Sequence record: NC_054920.1
Direction: 5' to 3' (one strand)
Length of the DNA: 64,000 bases
Origin: Escherichia phage vB_EcoM_G9062
Shown: piece after piece, positions 1 to 31,673 of the stretch
How the letters are laid out: each line of letters opens with the position of its first letter
Numbering within the stretch: the first letter of the stretch is position 1
Position numbers and translations under genes: made by a program
The notes under the pieces: generated by a model
Databases searched by the model: none
Told to the model about the DNA's origin: nothing
The model's input: only the letters and a program-made list of their open reading frames with translations

Positions 1-1178
<1,178 letters not shown>

Positions 1179-3826: not shown

Positions 3827-5451
<1,625 letters not shown>

Positions 5452-5452
<1 letters not shown>

Positions 5453-5706
5453 TGGAAGGTTTAATTGAAGCTATTAAATCAAACGACCTCGTAGCCGCTC
5501 GTAAATTATTTGCTGAAGCCATGGCTGCAAGAACGACTGATTTAATTAAAGAAGAAAAAATCGCTATCGCTCGTAATTTCTTAATCGAAGGTGAAGAACC
5601 TGATGACGAGGATGATGACGAAGACGAAGATAGTGATGATAAAGACGACAAAAAGACAAAGACTCTGACGAAGACGAGGATGATGAATAATGCTTCTGAT
5701 CCCTGA
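5452..5706 (+). CDS. 67: prohead core protein gp67 (3' end frame-shifted relative to the expected acidic C-terminus)
   Basis: Start overlaps the gene 20 stop (TAATG). Acidic Asp/Glu-rich body. After the A5 run at 5649-5653 the other frame encodes [11 protein letters not shown] and ends in TAATG with gene 68. Confidence 0.8.
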
Positions 5707-6115
5707 AACTCATGAATTAGTTCTCGAGAATGTCGAAGCACTTATTCCTGAAGCACAGGGTCGCTTTGACGAATTGTCTTCTGCTTTAAATAAAGACGAT
5801 ATAAATACAATTGTCGAGAATATGCTTGATGATGAAACTGATTTAGCGGTTGCATTAGCTTCTATTAATGAAAATATGCCGTTAAATGAATTTATCGTTA
5901 AACATGTTTCTGCCCGTGGTGAAATTACTCGCACTAAAGATCGCAAAACCCGCGAACGTAATGCATTTCAAACTACCGGGTTGTCTAAAGCAAAACGTAG
6001 ACAAATTGCTCGTAAAGCTACCAAAACGAAGATTGCCAATCCAGCAGGTCAATCTCGTGCTCAGCGTAAGCGTAAAAAAGCTCTTAAACGCCGTAAAGCA
6101 TTAGGATTAAGCTAA
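5690..6115 (+). CDS. 68: prohead core protein gp68
   Basis: 141 aa, basic C-terminus, position between 67 and 21 as in T4. Confidence 0.88.
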
Positions 6116-6753
6116 TGAATGAACCCCAATTACTAATTGAAACTTGGGGTCAACCTGGCGAAATTATTGATGGCGTACCAATGCTTGAATCTCATGATGG
6201 AAAAGACTTAGGTTTAAAACCGGGTTTATACATCGAAGGAATATTCATGCAAGCGGAAGTCGTCAATAGAAATAAACGTCTTTATCCAAAACGTATATTA
6301 GAAAAAGCGGTAAAAGACTATATTAATGAGCAAGTTTTAACTAAACAAGCTCTCGGAGAATTAAATCATCCTCCACGCGCTAATGTTGACCCGATGCAAG
6401 CCGCTATCATTATAGAAGATATGTGGTGGAAAGGAAATGACGTATACGGACGAGCTCGTGTTATTGAAGGTGACCACGGTCCTGGAGATAAATTAGCAGC
6501 TAATATTCGTGCCGGATGGATTCCAGGAGTTTCTTCTCGTGGATTAGGTTCATTGACTGACACAAATAAAGGTTATCGTATCGTAAACGAAGGATTCAAA
6601 TTAACTGTAGGTGTTGATGCAGTATGGGGTCCAAGTGCTCCAGATGCATGGGTAACTCCTAAGGAAATTACCGAATCACAGACGGCGGAAGCCGATACAA
6701 GTGCCGATGACGCCTATATGGCTCTCGCAGAGGCCATGAAAAAAGCGTTATAA
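6115..6753 (+). CDS. 21: prohead core protein and maturation protease gp21
   Basis: 212 aa, recognisable T4 gp21 sequence; ATG overlaps the gene 68 stop. Confidence 0.95.
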   Translation: MNEPQLLIETWGQPGEIIDGVPMLESHDGKDLGLKPGLYIEGIFMQAEVVNRNKRLYPKRILEKAVKDYINEQVLTKQALGELNHPPRANVDPMQAAIIIEDMWWKGNDVYGRARVIEGDHGPGDKLAANIRAGWIPGVSSRGLGSLTDTNKGYRIVNEGFKLTVGVDAVWGPSAPDAWVTPKEITESQTAEADTSADDAYMALAEAMKKAL

Positions 6754-6756
6754 ATA
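6749..6756 (+). promoter_or_regulatory. late promoter TATAAATA upstream of gene 22
   Basis: Exact TATAAATA overlapping the gene 21 stop, 28 nt before the gene 22 ATG. Confidence 0.7.
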
Positions 6757-6783
6757 TTATTATCTAAACAACAGGACTACAAA

Positions 6784-7593
6784 ATGCTTAAAGAACAACT
6801 GATTGCCGAAGCGCAGAAAATTGATGCTTCCGTTGCTCTTGATAGTATTTTCGAATCAGTTAATATTTCTCCGGAAGCAAAAGAAACTTTCGGCACTGTA
6901 TTCGAAGCTACCGTCAAGCAGCACGCCGTTAAATTAGCTGAATCTCATATCGCTAAAATTGCTGAAAAAGCAGAAGAAGAAGTAGAAAAAAATAAAGAAG
7001 AAGCAGAAGAAAAAGCTGAGAAGAAAATCGCTGAGCAAGCTTCTAAATTCCTTGACCATCTTGCAAAAGAATGGCTCACTGAAAATAAATTAGCAGTAGA
7101 TAAAGGTATCAAAGCCGAACTGTTTGAATCCATGCTTGGTGGATTGAAAGAGCTCTTCGTTGAACACAACGTTGTTGTTCCAGAAGAATCAGTTGATGTT
7201 GTAGCTGAAATGGAAGAAGAACTGCAAGAACATAAAGAAGAATCAGCTCGTCTGTTCGAAGAACTCAATAAGCGTGACGCATATATCAATTATGTGCAGC
7301 GTGAAGTGGCATTGAGCGAAAGTACTAAAGATCTGACTGAGTCTCAAAAAGAAAAAGTCTCTGCTCTGGTCGAAGGTATGGATTATTCAGATGCATTCTC
7401 AAGTAAATTGAGTGCAATCGTAGAAATGGTGAAGAAATCTAATAAAGATGAAAGCACTATTACTGAGAGTATAAATACTCCTGATACTGAAGCAGCCGGA
7501 CTGAATTTCGTCACTGAAGCTGTAGAAGATAAATCTGCACAAGGTGCAGAAGATATTGTAAGTGTATATGCGAAAGTCGCATCTCGTTTCTAA
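6784..7593 (+). CDS. 22: prohead scaffold protein gp22
   Basis: 269 aa, highly charged Glu/Lys-rich coiled-coil sequence as T4 gp22. Confidence 0.95.
   Translation: MLKEQLIAEAQKIDASVALDSIFESVNISPEAKETFGTVFEATVKQHAVKLAESHIAKIAEKAEEEVEKNKEEAEEKAEKKIAEQASKFLDHLAKEWLTENKLAVDKGIKAELFESMLGGLKELFVEHNVVVPEESVDVVAEMEEELQEHKEESARLFEELNKRDAYINYVQREVALSESTKDLTESQKEKVSALVEGMDYSDAFSSKLSAIVEMVKKSNKDESTITESINTPDTEAAGLNFVTEAVEDKSAQGAEDIVSVYAKVASRF
7470..7477 (+). promoter_or_regulatory. candidate late promoter TATAAATA inside 3' end of gene 22 (possible P23)
   Basis: Exact TATAAATA 135 nt upstream of the gene 23 ATG; no other TATAAATA lies closer to gene 23. Confidence 0.4.
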
Positions 7594-24355: not shown

Positions 24356-24359
24356 CAAT

Positions 24360-24377
24360 GGGGACCGAAAGGTCCCC
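24360..24377. terminator. bidirectional terminator GGGGACC-gaaa-GGTCCCC
   Basis: Perfect 7-bp GC stem with GAAA loop between convergent gene 54 and the minus-strand ORF 24383..24673. Confidence 0.7.
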
Positions 24378-24382
24378 ATATT

Positions 24383-24673
24383 TTATTTACGGAATGAAAT
24401 AAAAGCAGCAACTGAAGCAACAGAGGTTTCTTCAATATAAACCTCAATTTTTACCGGAGCTTCTGACTCAAATTTACCTGTTACTACACCTTGGAAAATA
24501 CTTTCAGTCTGTTCTGGCTTTGAAAAATTTTCAGAAGGAAAAATTCCGAACTTTTTATCTGTTCCAAAAATTTTGATAAATTCATCATAAACTGCTTCAT
24601 TAAAAGCGTTATTCCTGCTGATAACGCCTTCAACTACAAGTTCTTGACCTAAAAAGCGTAAAGAAGATTTCAT
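24383..24673 (-). CDS. hypothetical protein
   Basis: 96-aa ORF with ATG and RBS GAGGA; driven by the duplicated early promoter. Confidence 0.65.
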   Translation of the reverse strand: MKSSLRFLGQELVVEGVISRNNAFNEAVYDEFIKIFGTDKKFGIFPSENFSKPEQTESIFQGVVTGKFESEAPVKIEVYIEETSVASVAAFISFRK

Positions 24674-24680
24674 TTTGTGT

Positions 24681-24734
24681 TCCTCATGTTATGTCAGTAA
24701 GACTACTATAACACAACACGAGGGACTTGTAAAC
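24681..24734 (-). repeat. 54-bp perfect direct repeat, copy A (early promoter plus leader)
   Basis: Identical to 40544..40597 over 54/54 nt. Confidence 0.95.
24705..24734 (-). promoter_or_regulatory. T4-type early promoter (GTTTAC-N18-TGnTATAGT), copy A of a 54-bp repeat
   Basis: Minus strand GTTTACaagtccctcgtgttgtgtTATAGT followed by a leader with GAGGA RBS. Confidence 0.6.
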
Positions 24735-26791
24735 TACATTTTGAACTTTTTAGACATTCCGTTGATGTTAACCAAAGAAGCTAAGATTTGAGAAACTTCG
24801 CTTTCCTCTTCTTTTGATTCTTCTACAAGGAATTGATTAAATCCAGCCATTGGACGAACTTCACCAGTTTCCATTAGATGGTCGCCATCATATACTGATT
24901 CTTCTAATTGTTCAGAAGGAGGAACGATTGTACCTTCGATTAGATACTTGTTATAAGCAGTTTCTTTCATAAAGTAAGTACTTACTTTATTAATCTTCAG
25001 TAAAATTCCACGTGGTAGAATAACTTCAGCTTCTGACGGAAATCCTGATAAATGACCCGGAACGATAACTTTGATTCGCTCAGCTCCTTTAATTACCATA
25101 CCCACGCTAGTTTCAGCATCTTCATTAGCATATGTAGAATGACTACCCATATGCATCAAATCTTCTGCATCAACGGAACCTTCTCCTTCACCAGAAAATA
25201 CTGCGCCGGAATCATCTAGAGCCATATAGTTTTTACCATGCTCACCGAAGATATTTGGTTTAAGCGATGTGGATACGAAGTTCTTGAAATAGAACATTTT
25301 ATTTTCAATGTTATGACGCAAAGTTTTAAAGGTAACTTCTTGTCCACGGTAAAGTGTAGTTCCTGGAGGAAGAACTGAACCTTTAGCGAATGCAGAATCA
25401 AGCGTCTCAATATGTTTAATAGCTCGTTCCATATATTCTTCACGGGTAGAATCTGGTTTACCCAAAAGGAACGAGTTCATTTCAACATATGAATCTGCAC
25501 AATAATCTTCAATTACATCAGATTCAGCTTGAGTTAATCCTTTTGGAGTTACTTCAGTGCTTGCGTATTCATATGCCTGAGCAGCAGATTCATTAATCAA
25601 TTTATAAATGCCATTCATGACAAATTGAATAATAGCTGTCTTTTCATCTGGCGTAGCTTTAGAACCTTTAACCAAATCATTGATAATTTTCTTAATAACA
25701 TCAAAGCTATTAGAAATATTAATATCAGCAAGATCGCTTAAAATTTTATCAGTCTTATAATCAAAGAATTCTTTATTCTTTAAATATTCTTGAGAACCTT
25801 GATATGTTATATCGCTCTGTAACTTGATAGATGGATCACGTAAACGTGCATGGGCTAATGCAATATGATTTCGGAAGCTTTCGAGTTCATAATCACTAGA
25901 TTTAAAACGAGAAGCGCTTCTCATACCGCCTATAGCTCCTTTGCTGAAGTTTGAACCAATTTGAATAACGCCAGAGTTCATTGGTCCTTCTGCTTTATAC
26001 ACCGGAACTTTAGATTCAAACTCTTGATATTTCTTAGCAGCGAAGCTATCACCCTGAAGTGAAGCATCAACAGTAGAATATTGAGCTTGTGCTGCTAATC
26101 GACGACTAATTTTAGTTTTTTGAATAACAGCTTGATCCGTGCGCTTATCATTTTCTAAAGCAATAGAAGCAGCAACAGCGACAGCTTTAGGAACAGCATT
26201 ACCTGTTTTAACATCTACATAAACATCACCGACCTTCGATTCAACTTTTGTGAATAACTCAGTTGAAATAGGAGGTACACCTGGAATGTCTTCTAAATTG
26301 GCATTTTTACGGTAAACCATAATATATGCATACTTTTTATCATAGTCCCAGATTTCCTTTAAAAGAACATATCGACCTGCTCCTTTAGTACGTACTAAAC
26401 GGTCAGCAATAACTTGCATTTGACGAGCAGCGCCATTTGTTTTACTCTTTAGTACGCGGAATAAGCATGCATCAATTTTATACTGTTTCATTGTTTGAAG
26501 AGCAGTATCAAAAACAGCGTTAATGACGCCAATTGGATTTCCACCCAAGTTTCTAAGTTTAACCAGTGATAATTTCTCGTTGACACCTATCATTACGATA
26601 TGCATCATTTTATCGCCCGGCTTAACGTTTTTATTTGTATCACCTCCAGAGGTGTATGTACAAAATCTAAATCCAGGAAGCACGCTTTCTTCGCCGGCTT
26701 GAATAGCAAAAATTTGAGGTATTTTATGCTTAGGATTTAAGTTAACAACCGGCGCCGAAGCGCCGTCAAATAATTCTGTAATAAGTTCCAT
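24734..26791 (-). CDS. Alt-like ADP-ribosyltransferase paralog (second copy)
   Basis: 685 aa; N-terminal ~230 aa closely similar to the adjacent Alt; catalytic R-S-E motifs present (LYRGQ, FVSTSL, EAEVILPRG); central region divergent. Confidence 0.85.
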   Translation of the reverse strand: MELITELFDGASAPVVNLNPKHKIPQIFAIQAGEESVLPGFRFCTYTSGGDTNKNVKPGDKMMHIVMIGVNEKLSLVKLRNLGGNPIGVINAVFDTALQTMKQYKIDACLFRVLKSKTNGAARQMQVIADRLVRTKGAGRYVLLKEIWDYDKKYAYIMVYRKNANLEDIPGVPPISTELFTKVESKVGDVYVDVKTGNAVPKAVAVAASIALENDKRTDQAVIQKTKISRRLAAQAQYSTVDASLQGDSFAAKKYQEFESKVPVYKAEGPMNSGVIQIGSNFSKGAIGGMRSASRFKSSDYELESFRNHIALAHARLRDPSIKLQSDITYQGSQEYLKNKEFFDYKTDKILSDLADINISNSFDVIKKIINDLVKGSKATPDEKTAIIQFVMNGIYKLINESAAQAYEYASTEVTPKGLTQAESDVIEDYCADSYVEMNSFLLGKPDSTREEYMERAIKHIETLDSAFAKGSVLPPGTTLYRGQEVTFKTLRHNIENKMFYFKNFVSTSLKPNIFGEHGKNYMALDDSGAVFSGEGEGSVDAEDLMHMGSHSTYANEDAETSVGMVIKGAERIKVIVPGHLSGFPSEAEVILPRGILLKINKVSTYFMKETAYNKYLIEGTIVPPSEQLEESVYDGDHLMETGEVRPMAGFNQFLVEESKEEESEVSQILASLVNINGMSKKFKM

Positions 26792-26794
26792 GAT

Positions 26795-28846
26795 TTATCC
26801 TTGAACGAACTTGTAAGGCATGTTTGCAATATCTATGCAAGACGCAATAATTCCAAGAGATGATTCTACTTTCTGTTTAACATTTGATGAAACAAATGAT
26901 GCAAAGTCAACTCTATCTTCTATATCACCTGTCATTGTAACCAATTCACCAGTTTCCATTAAATGGTCTCCGTCATAGATTACCGATTCGGTGAGTTCTT
27001 CTGTGGTCATAACTTCAGCTTGAATAAGCTTGTTGTTAGTTTTAACTGTTCCATCATTGTAAGATGCATCGGTTATTTTATTAACTTTGACCATTAATCC
27101 ACGTGGCAAAATGACTTCCATTTCATTTGAAGGTGCTAAACTTCCACCGGGTAAAACAACATTGACCTTATCAGCCCCAGTAATAACCCATCCAATTCCA
27201 ACTAAATTATCGCTAGAATTTACTAGTCCTTCATCAGTTTTATCAATAGAAACACTTAGACGCTTTTCGTCTGGTAAAACACCTACAGATGAATCAGTCA
27301 TCCAAGTACCAAAAATATTTGGATATAATGATGTTGACACAAAGTTTCTAAAATAAAAAACTCGATTTTTTACCATTGCTTCATATATTGAAGGTAACAT
27401 TCGTTGTGAACGATACAAAGTAATACCTTTTGGTAATCGTTCACCATTTTTAAAGGCTGAATCTAAATTATCAATAGCTTTTTCTATGTCAGATGCTGTC
27501 AAAATACTTGTACGCTCATCTGGATTATATAATCCCAAAAGAGCATTATTTATATCTACATATCCTGAACCTACGTATTCACGAATTCCGCGTTTTTGCG
27601 CCGGTGTGTATTTAGATGAATCTTTATTTTCGACTATAGGATGTAATGACCATCCAGCTGTAAGAGCATATCCACGTAATTCTCTTCGAATAATCTTTGT
27701 TTTTATTGCATTCCAAGAATTTTGTACTAACTCATTTGCAGCATCTTGGTTTAAATGCGAATGTTTGTTAATATTTCTTTCAAACCAAGCACCTTTATAT
27801 TTTTCTAAAGTATCATCGACGATAGAAGCAATAGTTTCTAAAGTTTTTATTGAAGTAATAGATTCTTTTCGTAATCTTTCTAAAGCTTTATTTTTTATTT
27901 CTGTATTAACATCAGATTCTTTATCTTCAGGAATTATAGAAGCTTCTCTGAATGCCATTCCAGCTGTAACACTATTAAGAGCATTCTCTAATGCAAATCC
28001 TGAAGTAGAAATAACAGTTAATTCGTTAGCATCGGAAATTAAAGGCGCATCAGCGGGTTTATTTAATTCTGCTGCTGAAGCCTCAAATTTTTGAAACATC
28101 GGTGTTTCAAATCTAGAAGATTCCAATGATTGACTTTGCGCAATTGCTCTACGGGAAATTTTAACTTTAACGATTACAGCTTGGTCAGAACGTTTATCAT
28201 TTTCTTGTGCAATAGATGCTGCAATTGCCTCATTTTTAGTTACTTGAGCTCCAGTATCTTTATTGATATAAACATCACCGACCTTCGATTCAACTTTAGT
28301 AAAGAGCTCGGTACTAATTTCTGGAACTCCTGGAATGTCTTCTAGTGATACATTTTTGCGATGTATAAGAATATATGCATACTTTTTATCATAATCCCAG
28401 AGTTCCTTAAGAAGGACGTATCTGCCGCCTGAACGACTACGGATAAGTCTATCAGCAATAACTTGAATTTGTCGAGCTTGACCAGCGGTTTTAGACTTAA
28501 GAATACGGAGCATACAAGCATCAATTTTATATTGACGCATTGTTTGCATTGCAACAGTAAAAACTGAATTGATATAATTAATTGGGCTTGGCCCAAGACC
28601 TTTCAATTTAGCAATTGAACCTTTAGCGGTTAATGTAAAAGGAACAATATGCATCATTTTATCGCCCATTTTTAAATCGCGATTAGTATCACCTCCAGAT
28701 GTATAGGTACATAAACGAAAGCCTGGCTGTTCAATTGCATCATCAACGTGAACTGAAAAAATTTGCGGTATTTTCTTCTTTGGATTTAAGTTTGTAATCG
28801 GAAGAGTAGTATCTTCGTCAAATAATTCTGTAATGAGTTCCATCAT
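26795..28846 (-). CDS. alt: Alt ADP-ribosyltransferase (capsid-packaged, injected)
   Basis: 683 aa, matches T4 Alt as recalled; R-S-E motifs (LYRSQ, FVSTSL, EMEVILPRG). Confidence 0.92.
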   Translation of the reverse strand: MMELITELFDEDTTLPITNLNPKKKIPQIFSVHVDDAIEQPGFRLCTYTSGGDTNRDLKMGDKMMHIVPFTLTAKGSIAKLKGLGPSPINYINSVFTVAMQTMRQYKIDACMLRILKSKTAGQARQIQVIADRLIRSRSGGRYVLLKELWDYDKKYAYILIHRKNVSLEDIPGVPEISTELFTKVESKVGDVYINKDTGAQVTKNEAIAASIAQENDKRSDQAVIVKVKISRRAIAQSQSLESSRFETPMFQKFEASAAELNKPADAPLISDANELTVISTSGFALENALNSVTAGMAFREASIIPEDKESDVNTEIKNKALERLRKESITSIKTLETIASIVDDTLEKYKGAWFERNINKHSHLNQDAANELVQNSWNAIKTKIIRRELRGYALTAGWSLHPIVENKDSSKYTPAQKRGIREYVGSGYVDINNALLGLYNPDERTSILTASDIEKAIDNLDSAFKNGERLPKGITLYRSQRMLPSIYEAMVKNRVFYFRNFVSTSLYPNIFGTWMTDSSVGVLPDEKRLSVSIDKTDEGLVNSSDNLVGIGWVITGADKVNVVLPGGSLAPSNEMEVILPRGLMVKVNKITDASYNDGTVKTNNKLIQAEVMTTEELTESVIYDGDHLMETGELVTMTGDIEDRVDFASFVSSNVKQKVESSLGIIASCIDIANMPYKFVQG

Positions 28847-28866: not shown

Positions 28867-28874
28867 TATTTATA
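28867..28874 (-). promoter_or_regulatory. late promoter TATAAATA upstream of alt
   Basis: Minus strand TATAAATA about 20 nt upstream of the alt ATG; consistent with Alt being a head-packaged late product. Confidence 0.6.
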
Positions 28875-28879
28875 AAATT

Positions 28880-28897
28880 AAAGGCCCGAAGGCCTTT
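28880..28897 (-). terminator. hairpin AAAGGCC-cgaa-GGCCTTT upstream of the alt promoter
   Basis: Perfect inverted repeat. Confidence 0.55.
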
Positions 28898-30544: not shown

Positions 30545-30810
30545 TGTTCATCCTTTAGAGTTTGGTTTACAGCTCTATTATAAATCAATTCATCATTAAG
30601 CTCAGTCAAAGACCTGTGGTACGTGGTTCTAACTTTATTTCCTTGCATCCAGTGCTTGACGTAAATGAAACCTTGCTCTACACATTTTTTAAAAATTCGT
30701 TCGTCTTTTTGAGCTCGGAATTCTGGATTGCATCTAAAAAATTGATTTACGTGACCGTAATCACGTGTAGTATTACCTTCATTTTCATAAATAGTGTGAA
30801 CAACAAACAT
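30541..30810 (-). CDS. hypothetical protein (30.1-like)
   Basis: 89-aa ORF, ATG overlaps the upstream stop. Confidence 0.6.
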   Translation of the reverse strand: MFVVHTIYENEGNTTRDYGHVNQFFRCNPEFRAQKDERIFKKCVEQGFIYVKHWMQGNKVRTTYHRSLTELNDELIYNRAVNQTLKDEQ

Positions 30811-31673
30811 TAGAATGCTCCTTGGAAAATATTATCACCACTAGTAAATCTATTAAAATATCCTGCATCACCAGGCTTAGTATAACTCCACGTATGGAAT
30901 GGATTCATATGATACGGGTGTGTATAATATGGATTATATGGATGTGTATAATATGGATTATACGGATTAAATTCAGGAGTTCTCCAGGTAGTGTTCCAAC
31001 GAAAAGAATCGTTTTTAACCATCTTCTCAATTACATCTTTTATAGCTTTTTCACTATCAAAACTTTCTTTATTTTCCTTCGGTGAAAAAAGCTTATTTTC
31101 TACATCATTCCATGTATAAACTCGCTGCGCAGTTTTTGGAATATTGTCACGCTCTCCTCGAGCCATCCAATAAACAGGAACATTTAATATTTCACTCGCA
31201 TGATCGCAGTGGTGGGCGAGATCGTCAATATAACAAATTACATTATATTTCTCTTTTGCCTTTTTGAATAACTCTTCTTTTGAAGAATCATGACCACACA
31301 TCATTACTTCTGAGAAGGCACCAGGAAAAAGAGCATTCAAATTAAATTGACGATTCAGCAGAGCGTCAATAGAATCACCCAATGCTGTAACAGCTACAAA
31401 ATTATAATCTTCTTTTAATTTGTTAATTACACACAGGGCATCTTTATATGGAGACAAGTAACGAATAAAATCTGAACGATTGTATTTTTCAATTAACTTG
31501 ACGCCAAGTTCTTCATCACAATTAAAGAGTTTACCAGGAGAAATAAATTTCTCATCTTGGATCATTTTTAAAATATGTTCTAACGGAAGATTATATTTCT
31601 GAGCAAAATAAGGAAGGCCTGATTGCCAGCTTAAACATACTCCATCAATATCAGTTAAAATAGTAGGCTTCAT
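30810..31673 (-). CDS. HAD-superfamily phosphatase-like protein (30.2-like) with C-terminal PYNPYYTHPY repeats
   Basis: 287 aa; N-terminal ILTDIDGV matches HAD motif I (DxDG); C-terminus has tandem repeats encoded by a 24-bp DNA repeat. Confidence 0.7.
   Translation of the reverse strand: MKPTILTDIDGVCLSWQSGLPYFAQKYNLPLEHILKMIQDEKFISPGKLFNCDEELGVKLIEKYNRSDFIRYLSPYKDALCVINKLKEDYNFVAVTALGDSIDALLNRQFNLNALFPGAFSEVMMCGHDSSKEELFKKAKEKYNVICYIDDLAHHCDHASEILNVPVYWMARGERDNIPKTAQRVYTWNDVENKLFSPKENKESFDSEKAIKDVIEKMVKNDSFRWNTTWRTPEFNPYNPYYTHPYNPYYTHPYHMNPFHTWSYTKPGDAGYFNRFTSGDNIFQGAF
30919..30966. repeat. 24-bp tandem repeat x2 (tgtgtataatatggattata[t/c]gga)
   Basis: Two adjacent units differing at one position, inside the 3' end of the HAD-like gene. 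Confidence 0.85.

Follow-up and report, generated by a model that had tools for sequence, protein, structure and literature searches.

Alt, a textbook phage enzyme, is injected together with the DNA and reprograms the host from the very start of infection; what is known of it stems almost entirely from T4. In the genome of Escherichia phage vB_EcoM_G9062 (NC_054920.1), of which a stretch of 64,000 nucleotides (the window) was analyzed here, two genes of this type are adjacent to each other. The question raised by this locus is whether the phage injects two ADP-ribosyltransferases with different targets, as the original prediction had suggested. According to the interpretation that we regard as fairly probable, two paralogous genes for arginine-type (R-S-ExE) Alt mono-ADP-ribosyltransferases form this locus of a Tequatrovirus genome, with copy A being the ortholog of T4 Alt and copy B an intact alt.-2, and both enzymes would be packaged, injected, and directed against partly different substrates.

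The tandem genes and their expression

Both ORFs lie head to tail on the minus strand at the positions originally given, A upstream (26795-28846, 683 aa from the first ATG) and B downstream (24734-26791, 685 aa). Between the stop codon of A (TAA, 26797-26795) and the ATG of B at 26791 stands only ATC, a spacer of 3 nt (26792-26794). The predicted length of A is correct when counted from the first ATG, but the second, adjacent ATG (28843) is favored on the basis of T4's annotated start and the spacing from a GAGGA Shine-Dalgarno sequence, giving 682 aa (Table 1).

In BLASTP, A and B share 41% identity with an E value of 5e-160, so their similarity did not arise by chance, and both match phrog_802 end to end (7e-264 for A, 4e-256 for B). 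Each resembles T4 Alt over the full length including the N-terminal Tevenvirinae_ADPRT domain, and the pair occupies the genomic position of the Alt family, with gene 30/alt.1 on one side and alt.-3/gene 54 on the other. The domains PF26846 and PF03496 are precomputed for homologs of both the B and the A type, and A itself matches PF03496 at 1e-35. With 99% identity, A is the ortholog of T4 Alt (gpAlt, NP_049811). B has the same length, domain order, R/STS/ExE residues, gp21 motifs at both ends, and genomic position as T4 Alt, but differs from it by an overall identity of 41%, which falls to 14-22% in the helical region, and by F584 at a position where T4 Alt has proline.

A box of the T4 late-promoter type, TATAAATA, upstream of A is the sole such box in an intergenic position ahead of the pair; the motif as such is enriched within the window (19 found versus 8.1 expected), and a further one inside A may or may not contribute to the expression of B. 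A and B would be transcribed late as one unit from the upstream box, and translation of B would rely on a separate Shine-Dalgarno sequence that lies within the last codons of A. Since the 3-nt spacer provides no room for a separate B promoter, the expression level of B would depend on read-through. The hairpin that separates alt.1 from the late promoter resembles a terminator and would end transcripts arriving from upstream.

Table 1. Features of the alt locus, with positions in the window.
Feature	Position	Strand	Remark
G+C-rich hairpin AAGGCC-TTCG-GGCCTT, then T-rich tail	28881..28896	-	read from sequence; putative terminator
T4 late-promoter-type box TATAAATA	28867..28874	-	~20 nt upstream of A
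Copy A, T4 alt ortholog, 682 aa from second ATG	26795..28843	-	675/682 identical to T4 Alt
A N-domain, aa 1-240	28124-28843	-	
A helical variable region, aa ~241-470			
Internal TATAAATA	27547-27554		inside A
A ART core, aa ~471-619			
A catalytic E-x-E motif, E574-M-E576	27116..27124	-	invariant alignment columns
A E619, C-terminal gp21 cleavage site LTE/S	26987..26989	-	column invariant in 40 sequences
A C-terminal propeptide, aa 620-682			
B Shine-Dalgarno sequence AAGGA	26798..26802	-	within A's last codons, 6 nt ahead of B ATG
Copy B, 685 aa	24734..26791	-	intact gene called 'alt.-2' in RB51, T6, ime09
B N-terminal domain, aa 1-240	26072..26791	-	alpha/beta, basic (pI 9.6), 67% identical to A's
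B E6 of ITE-6 gp21 site	26774-26776	-	inside N-terminal domain
B all-helical variable region, aa ~246-474	25370..26056	-	14-22% identical to A in aligned bins
B ART catalytic core, aa 475-631	24899..25369	-	
B R482	25346-25348	-	core residue
B S507	25271-25273	-	core residue
B ARTT-loop aromatic residue F584			within ART core
B E587/E589	25025-25033	-	core residues
B predicted gp21 site LEE/S, last residue E631	24899-24901	-	
B predicted C-terminal propeptide, 54 aa	24737..24898	-	acidic, pI 4.6
B segment absent from T4 and 90 other deposited genomes	24754..26443	-	~1.69 kb
alt.-3 promoter, sigma-70-like, TTTACA-17-TATAGT	24705-24733		alt.-3's own
alt.-3, 96 aa, DUF5498	24383..24673	-	downstream neighbor of B
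Bidirectional hairpin terminator	24358-24379		after alt.-3

Prohead protease sites and proposed packaging

T4 Alt loses just a 6-residue propeptide at the N-terminus and a 63-residue propeptide at the C-terminus, the latter by cleavage at LTE-619 (PMC5694885), and the mass computed for A residues 7-619 (68.2 kDa) agrees with that report. Processing motifs of the N-terminal (ITE-6) and the C-terminal (LTE-619) type are present in both copies; E6 and the glutamate of the C-terminal L-x-E are invariant family-wide (40 sequences) and correspond to the positions where cleavage of T4 Alt by gp21 was determined by experiment (PMC5694885). B has L-I-T-E/L-F-D, L-x-E/S, and the propeptide motif YDGDxLxETGE, all of them invariant or nearly so in the family, and its C-terminal propeptide is modeled with low pLDDT, as is the corresponding part of A. 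As far as motif presence alone can indicate, their retention in B fits packaging.

The conserved N-terminus had been expected to carry the capsid-targeting signal, a view that proved too simple: since the N-terminal propeptide comprises only 6 residues, the conserved block of ~240 residues (pI ~9.5) is a whole basic domain and not simply a targeting signal. Both proteins would enter the prohead core via this common domain and the terminal propeptides, and the prohead protease gp21 would trim them after E6 and after E619 (A) or E631 (B). They would then be ejected with the DNA into the next host, where each enzyme would use NAD+ to ADP-ribosylate arginines of host proteins.

Alternatively, B might be active but not packaged and function late in infection in the producing cell, comparable to ModA and ModB of T4, which are non-packaged and act earlier in infection. 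This would be in line with the downstream position of B in the operon, where expression could differ from that of A, and in the literature we found no virion proteomics for B, nor other proteomic or biochemical data on its expression, packaging, cleavage, injection, or activity. However, B has kept the gp21 sites at both ends and YDGDxLxETGE, and it has the basic N-domain in common with the packaged Alt, whereas ModA and ModB are proteins of ~200 residues that lack Alt's N-domain and processing modules. Hence, we deem a non-packaged B improbable.

Catalytic core and divergence of the effector parts

The R-S-E signature claimed for both copies could be located in each of them, with LYR at 476-478 (R478), STS at 503-505, and E574-M-E576 in A, and LYR at 480-482 (R482), STS at 507-509, and E587-A-E589 in B. 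In the 40-sequence family alignment, the R, the S, and the two E show no variation, and by these motifs A and B belong to the R-S-E clade (PF03496, C3/VIP2-like). Structure models of moderate confidence (pLDDT 75-78; for A, AF2 m6423b451a751 with pLDDT 74.8) predict the ART fold of this clade, which in B is a C3/Vis-like ADP-ribosyltransferase fold, and the downstream copy thus combines the catalytic residues with a matching predicted fold. Taken together, the sequence data support two intact Alt-family ADP-ribosyltransferase genes with the catalytic residues in place. The E-x-E signature of the Alt copies is the one linked to arginine-specific R-S-E members, and NAD+-dependent ADP-ribosyl transfer to arginine is known from the literature for T4 Alt. 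An 'Alt E577A' mutant of T4 was reported to be catalytically dead (PMC11404850); the numbering in that study appears to be shifted by one position, as Val occupies position 577 and E576 is the closest glutamate.

The catalytic fold and motifs are common to Alt and the C3-like, VIP2, iota, CDTa, and Vis toxins (PF03496). In contrast to these R-S-E toxins, Alt possesses a phage-specific N-domain of ~240 residues (PF26846, Tevenvirinae_ADPRT) as well as a long insert of helical structure, its propeptides are removed by the prohead protease, and it is delivered by the virion instead of a secretion system or a binary-toxin pore.

As predicted, the N-terminal parts of A and B are similar and their middle parts strongly diverged. 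Identity is 67% across residues 1-235 and 34-37% for the remainder, and in bins of 50 alignment columns it ranges from 54 to 78% in columns 1-250 and from 14 to 22% in columns 251-450, so that the two middle regions differ widely. Synonymous sites have reached saturation along the whole A/B comparison (pS 0.52-0.72). In the effector part, B falls together with the final gene of the Dhakavirus WG01 array and A with the middle gene; the A/B split of this part is ancient and was maintained across genera. A further difference concerns the ARTT loop, whose aromatic position is occupied by F584 in B versus Pro in A. Near the catalytic Arg and in this loop B is closer than A to the family consensus; B keeps the family-consensus substrate-recognition loop, with canonical T4 Alt being the outlier, a point that is new here. 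The differing ARTT loops suggest, without proving them, different targets for A and B, and as both the helical region and this loop differ, the two enzymes would be expected to modify partly different substrates.

If B were active and packaged but redundant, it would modify the same targets as A (e.g., the RNA polymerase alpha subunit) and provide an extra dose or a reserve in case one enzyme is blocked by the host. The likeness of A and B in architecture, catalytic motifs, and processing sites is compatible with this, and so is the fact that T4 and 90 other genomes have lost B with no apparent cost. It nevertheless seems unlikely to us, as divergence is strongest on the substrate side, the split of the effector part is old and kept across genera, and strong purifying selection on both copies is unexpected for simply redundant genes. 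Two injected enzymes with different targets fit these sequence features, and the literature yielded no experimental test of this arrangement.

Alleles of A are 100% identical at aa 1-240 versus 28-67% at aa 241-600, and trees calculated from the N-domain and the effector part are discordant. Alt proteins are modular, with an N-terminal domain of ~240 residues that is similar between the copies of a genome and an exchangeable effector part, which is also new here. Across Tequatrovirus, B is far more uniform than alt itself. A broader model, which we put forward tentatively and hold with less than even confidence, is that the injection of two or more ADP-ribosyltransferases, built from a delivery module and effector cassettes, is the norm among T-even phages. 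The basic N-terminal head-packaging domain would be similar per genome or genus, and the ART effector (aa ~240-620) would come in several old cassettes that can be exchanged for one another, namely T4-type A, T2/T6-type A, B, and another, third type in Dhakavirus. B would then be a conserved 'core' injected enzyme with host targets of its own, possibly defence or translation factors, and T4 Alt would be derived and variable. Polymorphic toxins and MuF-fused phage effectors likewise combine a conserved delivery module with a swapped effector, but this is an analogy only, since Alt has neither a MuF domain nor an immunity gene and all its cassettes are ARTs.

Loss of B in T4 and its distribution among relatives

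The original prediction took T4 to have only one intact alt, and the T4 record indeed contains one intact alt plus the fragments alt.-1 (186 nt; NP_049810) and alt.-2 (204 nt; NP_049809), which it explains by a duplication limited to the beginning of alt. These fragments (phrog_23015 and phrog_15247) match B residues 1-~55 and 62-~117, respectively. Given the intact B in the phage studied here, they derive from a full-length paralog, which in T4 was destroyed by a deletion of ~1.69 kb plus a stop/frameshift. The deletion junction lies within an imperfect 9-nt microhomology, CTAAAnAGT, and the flanking DNA of T4 and the window is ~94-95% identical.

The pair is not special to this phage, but the majority state in Tequatrovirus. 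The second 'Alt-like RNA polymerase ADP-ribosyltransferase' or 'alt.-2' of T2, T6, RB51, SHFML-11, 6phi13, and ~400 Tequatrovirus records is the same gene as B, with 685 aa, the same 3-nt spacer, 98-99% amino-acid identity, and no material difference. Among the deposited T4-like genomes, ~400 carry B with the B-specific DNA intact, T2, T6, and RB51 being examples, and about four fifths of the deposited T4 relatives have the gene. The deletion is common to 91 records, T4 included, and rare contigs contain a single A::B hybrid; B is dispensable in these lineages. The window has the T4-type allele of A beside B; in T2, T6, and RB51, B stands beside an A allele of 697 aa.

Its loss from T4-type genomes could also mean that B is a duplicate in decay or without catalytic activity. 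It would then be about to disappear or be a pseudo-enzyme whose role in the head core is structural; for T4 Alt, a function as core protein besides the enzymatic one has been described (PMC11404850). Such decay is very hard to reconcile with a B that has every catalytic residue intact, fits the family consensus at the catalytic Arg and the ARTT loop better than A does, and counts 400 intact copies on record. Moreover, dN/dS among B orthologs is 0.027-0.046 over the whole gene (0.03-0.05 when rounded), indicating strong purifying selection.

The two-copy arrangement is already known as the usual one, with a pair of Alt-like genes annotated in numerous records, so that as the result of a genome scan the gene pair is ordinary. 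The A/B paralogy was mentioned in papers of 2006 and 2026; PMC13600099 describes the paralogous pair with 43.29% identity and already voices the same speculation. For the biology of the group, T4 is atypical in that most of its relatives, T2 and T6 included, encode a second, strongly conserved Alt paralog. If B is indeed a conserved core injected enzyme, work on T4 only would have missed it. If it is injected and has substrates of its own, early host takeover by T-even phages, and possibly counter-defence, would be incompletely described, which would extend to many phages in therapy collections.

Layout of the alt locus

The window is part of a T4-like (Tequatrovirus) genome in which, according to the ORF listing, gp29, gp48 and gp54 are encoded on the plus strand and gene 30 (DNA ligase), alt.1, two long ORFs and alt.-3 on the minus strand. 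The two long ORFs, designated A (upstream) and B (downstream), lie exactly where the original prediction had placed two tandem Alt-type ADP-ribosyltransferase genes. The proposed 3-nt spacer is likewise present: the TAA stop codon of A is followed by ATC and then by the ATG of B, which leaves too little space for a promoter, and the AAGGA Shine-Dalgarno sequence of B is located within the last codons of A. The predicted length of 685 aa holds for B. The 683 aa given for A count from the first of two adjacent ATGs, of which the second (28843; 682 aa) is preferred, as it agrees with the T4 annotation and is better spaced from GAGGA.

A T4 late-promoter box, TATAAATA, is situated ~20 nt upstream of A. 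A second such box within A, ~750 nt upstream of B, arises from conserved D-I-N-N codons. The alleles of T2, T6 and RB51, all accompanied by an intact B, have it at the corresponding site; alt of T4, which has B deleted, does not. This inner box may be fortuitous or may serve B as an internal late promoter. The downstream neighbor of B, alt.-3 (DUF5498), has its own promoter, which is sigma-70-like (TTTACA-17-TATAGT). Downstream of alt.-3 lies a bidirectional terminator hairpin with a 9-bp stem that it shares with gene 54. T4 mutants with a C-terminal extension of alt.-3 escape defence by CmdTAC (PMC11618068). The homolog of gene 30.2 is an ORF of 287 aa, compared with 278 aa implied by T4 gene 30.2 (837 nt), and the C-terminal part of its predicted product includes a short repeat in tandem, NPYNPYYTHPYNPYYTHPY.

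Coordinates of features at the alt locus of vB_EcoM_G9062 (NC_054920.1)
Feature	Position	Strand	Remark
A	26795..28846	minus	ORF from first ATG
Stop codon of A (TAA)	26797-26795	minus	then ATC, then ATG of B
B	24734..26791	minus	ORF
Late-promoter box TATAAATA	28867-28874		upstream of A
Inner TATAAATA box	27547-27554	minus	within A
ARTT-loop region of A	26987-27430	minus	
ARTT-loop region of B	24899-25369	minus	
Segment lacking in T4	~24754-26443		~1.69 kb
alt.-3	24383-24673	minus	DUF5498
Promoter of alt.-3	24705-24733		sigma-70-like
Terminator hairpin	24358-24379		bidirectional
Gene 30.2 homolog	30810-31673	minus	

Catalytic core and target specificity

Both proteins match Pfam PF03496 (ADP-ribosyltransferase exoenzyme; 1e-35 for A and 6e-20 for B) and, end to end, the PHROG family of Alt-like ADP-ribosyltransferases (7e-264 and 4e-256). 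A, which is identical to T4 Alt in 675 of 682 residues, is its ortholog. In an alignment of 40 members of the Alt family encoded by Tevenvirinae and Twarogvirinae phages, the catalytic Arg (A R478, B R482), the first Ser of the S-T-S motif (A S503, B S507) and both glutamates of E-x-E (A E574/E576, B E587/E589) are invariant, and the R-S-E signature noticed in the two ORFs is thus complete also in the downstream copy. A T4 mutant named Alt E577A was reported to be catalytically dead (PMC11404850); the glutamate nearest to this position in the 682-residue numbering is E576. The AlphaFold2 model of B (pLDDT 77.9) resembles solved ADP-ribosyltransferases (Foldseek probability 1.00, TM-score on target ~0.65), and at the sequence level the family profile also detects C3, VIP2, iota and CDTa. 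A is modeled with the same layout: an alpha/beta N-terminal domain (residues 1 to ~195), linker helices, an all-helical region (~250–470), the beta core of the ART fold and a C-terminal tail of low confidence. Comparisons of B between the window, T2, T6 and RB51 give dN/dS of only 0.027–0.046 (at dS 0.12–0.21), and B is therefore under strong purifying selection.

A and B share 41% identity (BLASTP, E = 5e-160), which is distributed very unevenly. Identity is 67% across the first 235 residues, in agreement with the similar N-terminus of ~230 residues described initially, and 34–37% across the rest. The middle regions, predicted to have diverged strongly, are far from near-identical in the pairwise alignment (14–22% in columns 251–450), and the helical region is, together with the catalytic-core loops, where divergence is highest. 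Substrate recognition by C3-like enzymes depends in part on the ARTT loop directly before E-x-E. Of the 40 family members, 32, including B (F584), have an aromatic residue (F, Y or W) at the aromatic position of this loop and three have His; the remaining five, all Tequatrovirus A-type proteins, carry Pro if T4-type and Gln if T2/T6-type. The sequence around the catalytic Arg is the consensus-like LYRGQ in B vs. LYRSQ in A. By these two features B is the more consensus-like enzyme and the textbook T4 Alt an atypical member of its own family, and a difference in substrate preference between A and B is plausible.

Processing of T4 Alt by the prohead protease gp21 was reported to occur after ITE-6 and LTE-619, removing an N-terminal propeptide of six residues and a second, C-terminal propeptide and yielding a mature protein of 68.2 kDa (PMC5694885). 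The mass computed for residues 7–619 is also 68.2 kDa, and the mapping of the cleavage sites is therefore right. B contains ITE at residues 4–6 and LEE|S at 629–631, with a predicted mature form of 69.1 kDa (residues 7–631). Neither of the two cleavage-site glutamates varies among the 40 family members, and much of the YDGDxLxETGE motif after the C-terminal site is invariant as well. A and B alike have a strongly basic N-terminal domain (pI 9.5–9.6) and an acidic C-terminal propeptide (pI 4.2–4.6). The original prediction assigned a capsid-targeting signal to the conserved N-terminus; the conserved block is real, but it comprises a whole domain and not just a signal. These features fit a scenario in which A and B would be co-expressed late in infection from the TATAAATA box upstream of A and both taken into the prohead core. 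No virion proteomics or biochemistry on B was found in the literature. We consider it reasonably probable that the phage injects two ADP-ribosyltransferases with different specificities, our preferred explanation, which agrees with all the sequence evidence.

Modular evolution and loss of B in T4

Comparison of A with B shows saturation at synonymous sites in all 60-codon bins, including those of the N-domain (pS 0.52–0.72). Therefore, the duplication is old, and the N-terminal similarity in the window genome reflects constraint on the protein and not a recent conversion event. Among Tequatroviruses, canonical alt is itself mosaic: the T4-type A (window, 26795–28843) and the T2/T6/RB51 allele are 100% identical in residues 1–240, 28–43% in 241–420, 55–67% in 421–600 and 93% in 603–662. 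The T4-type middle of A was found in only 173 records vs. 400 with B, and B is therefore more uniformly conserved than alt.

Domain trees and pairwise identities of N-domains and effector parts are discordant. N-domains group by genome or genus (67% identity between Tequatrovirus A and B, 64–68% among the three copies of the Dhakavirus WG01, 42–46% cross-genus); effector parts group by array position (77% between T6-type A and WG01 gene 200, 52% between B and WG01 gene 199, 34–37% between A and B). This is the pattern of a delivery module whose copies stay similar within each genome and which is joined, near residue 240, to effector cassettes that can be exchanged. Some assembled contigs encode hybrids with an A-type N-terminus up to residue ~45, 105, 165 or 215 followed by the body of B (P0003–P0006), and in both contigs examined (P0003 and P0006; L007 and L008, each 5001–7061) the hybrid is the sole alt gene between alt.1 and alt.-3. 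Such genes fit the product expected from unequal recombination of tandem paralogs, which collapses the array; since these contigs are metagenomic or read-archive assemblies, the hybrids are possibly assembly artefacts.

As stated in the original prediction, T4 has one intact alt, its second gene being represented only by the fragments alt.-1 and alt.-2. These align to residues 1 to ~55 and 62 to ~117 of B, whose N-terminus matches two small PHROG families presumably built from such fragments. In the T4 record they are described as an old duplication of the initial portion of alt. Because B is intact here, alt.-1 and alt.-2 are instead the remnant of a full-length paralog. Alignment of the T4 locus to the window placed the deletion junction within an imperfect 9-nt microhomology (CTAAAnAGT). 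The same junction is common to 91 records, including the wild isolates ACG-C40, HY03, slur03 and Lutter; the deletion did not originate in the laboratory but is polymorphic in nature.

Distribution of the two-gene array

The 4.8-kb locus occurs in 285 deposited phage genomes (at least 80% coverage), and a B-specific 1.3-kb probe matched the 400 records containing B (at least 80% coverage and at least 90% identity). T2, T6 and RB51 all have a 685-aa B after a 3-nt spacer (named alt.-2 in RB51), and adjacent genes for two Alt-like ADP-ribosyltransferases are annotated in many RefSeq records. Copy number varies further afield, from one Alt-like gene in Acinetobacter phage Acj9 to three in tandem in WG01 (631, 693 and 707 aa; L006 12–6124). 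A comparison of T4-like genomes from 2006 listed alt.-1/alt.-2 of T4 as paralogs duplicated from alt, and noted a full-length alt duplicate in phage 44RR (PMC1524935). [quoted passage not shown] The two-Alt arrangement is thus real but already known, annotated in hundreds of records and remarked on in print. What it still offers is a cheap, well-defined experiment, and a reminder that two Alt genes are the normal state of T-even phages and that T4 is atypical at the alt locus.
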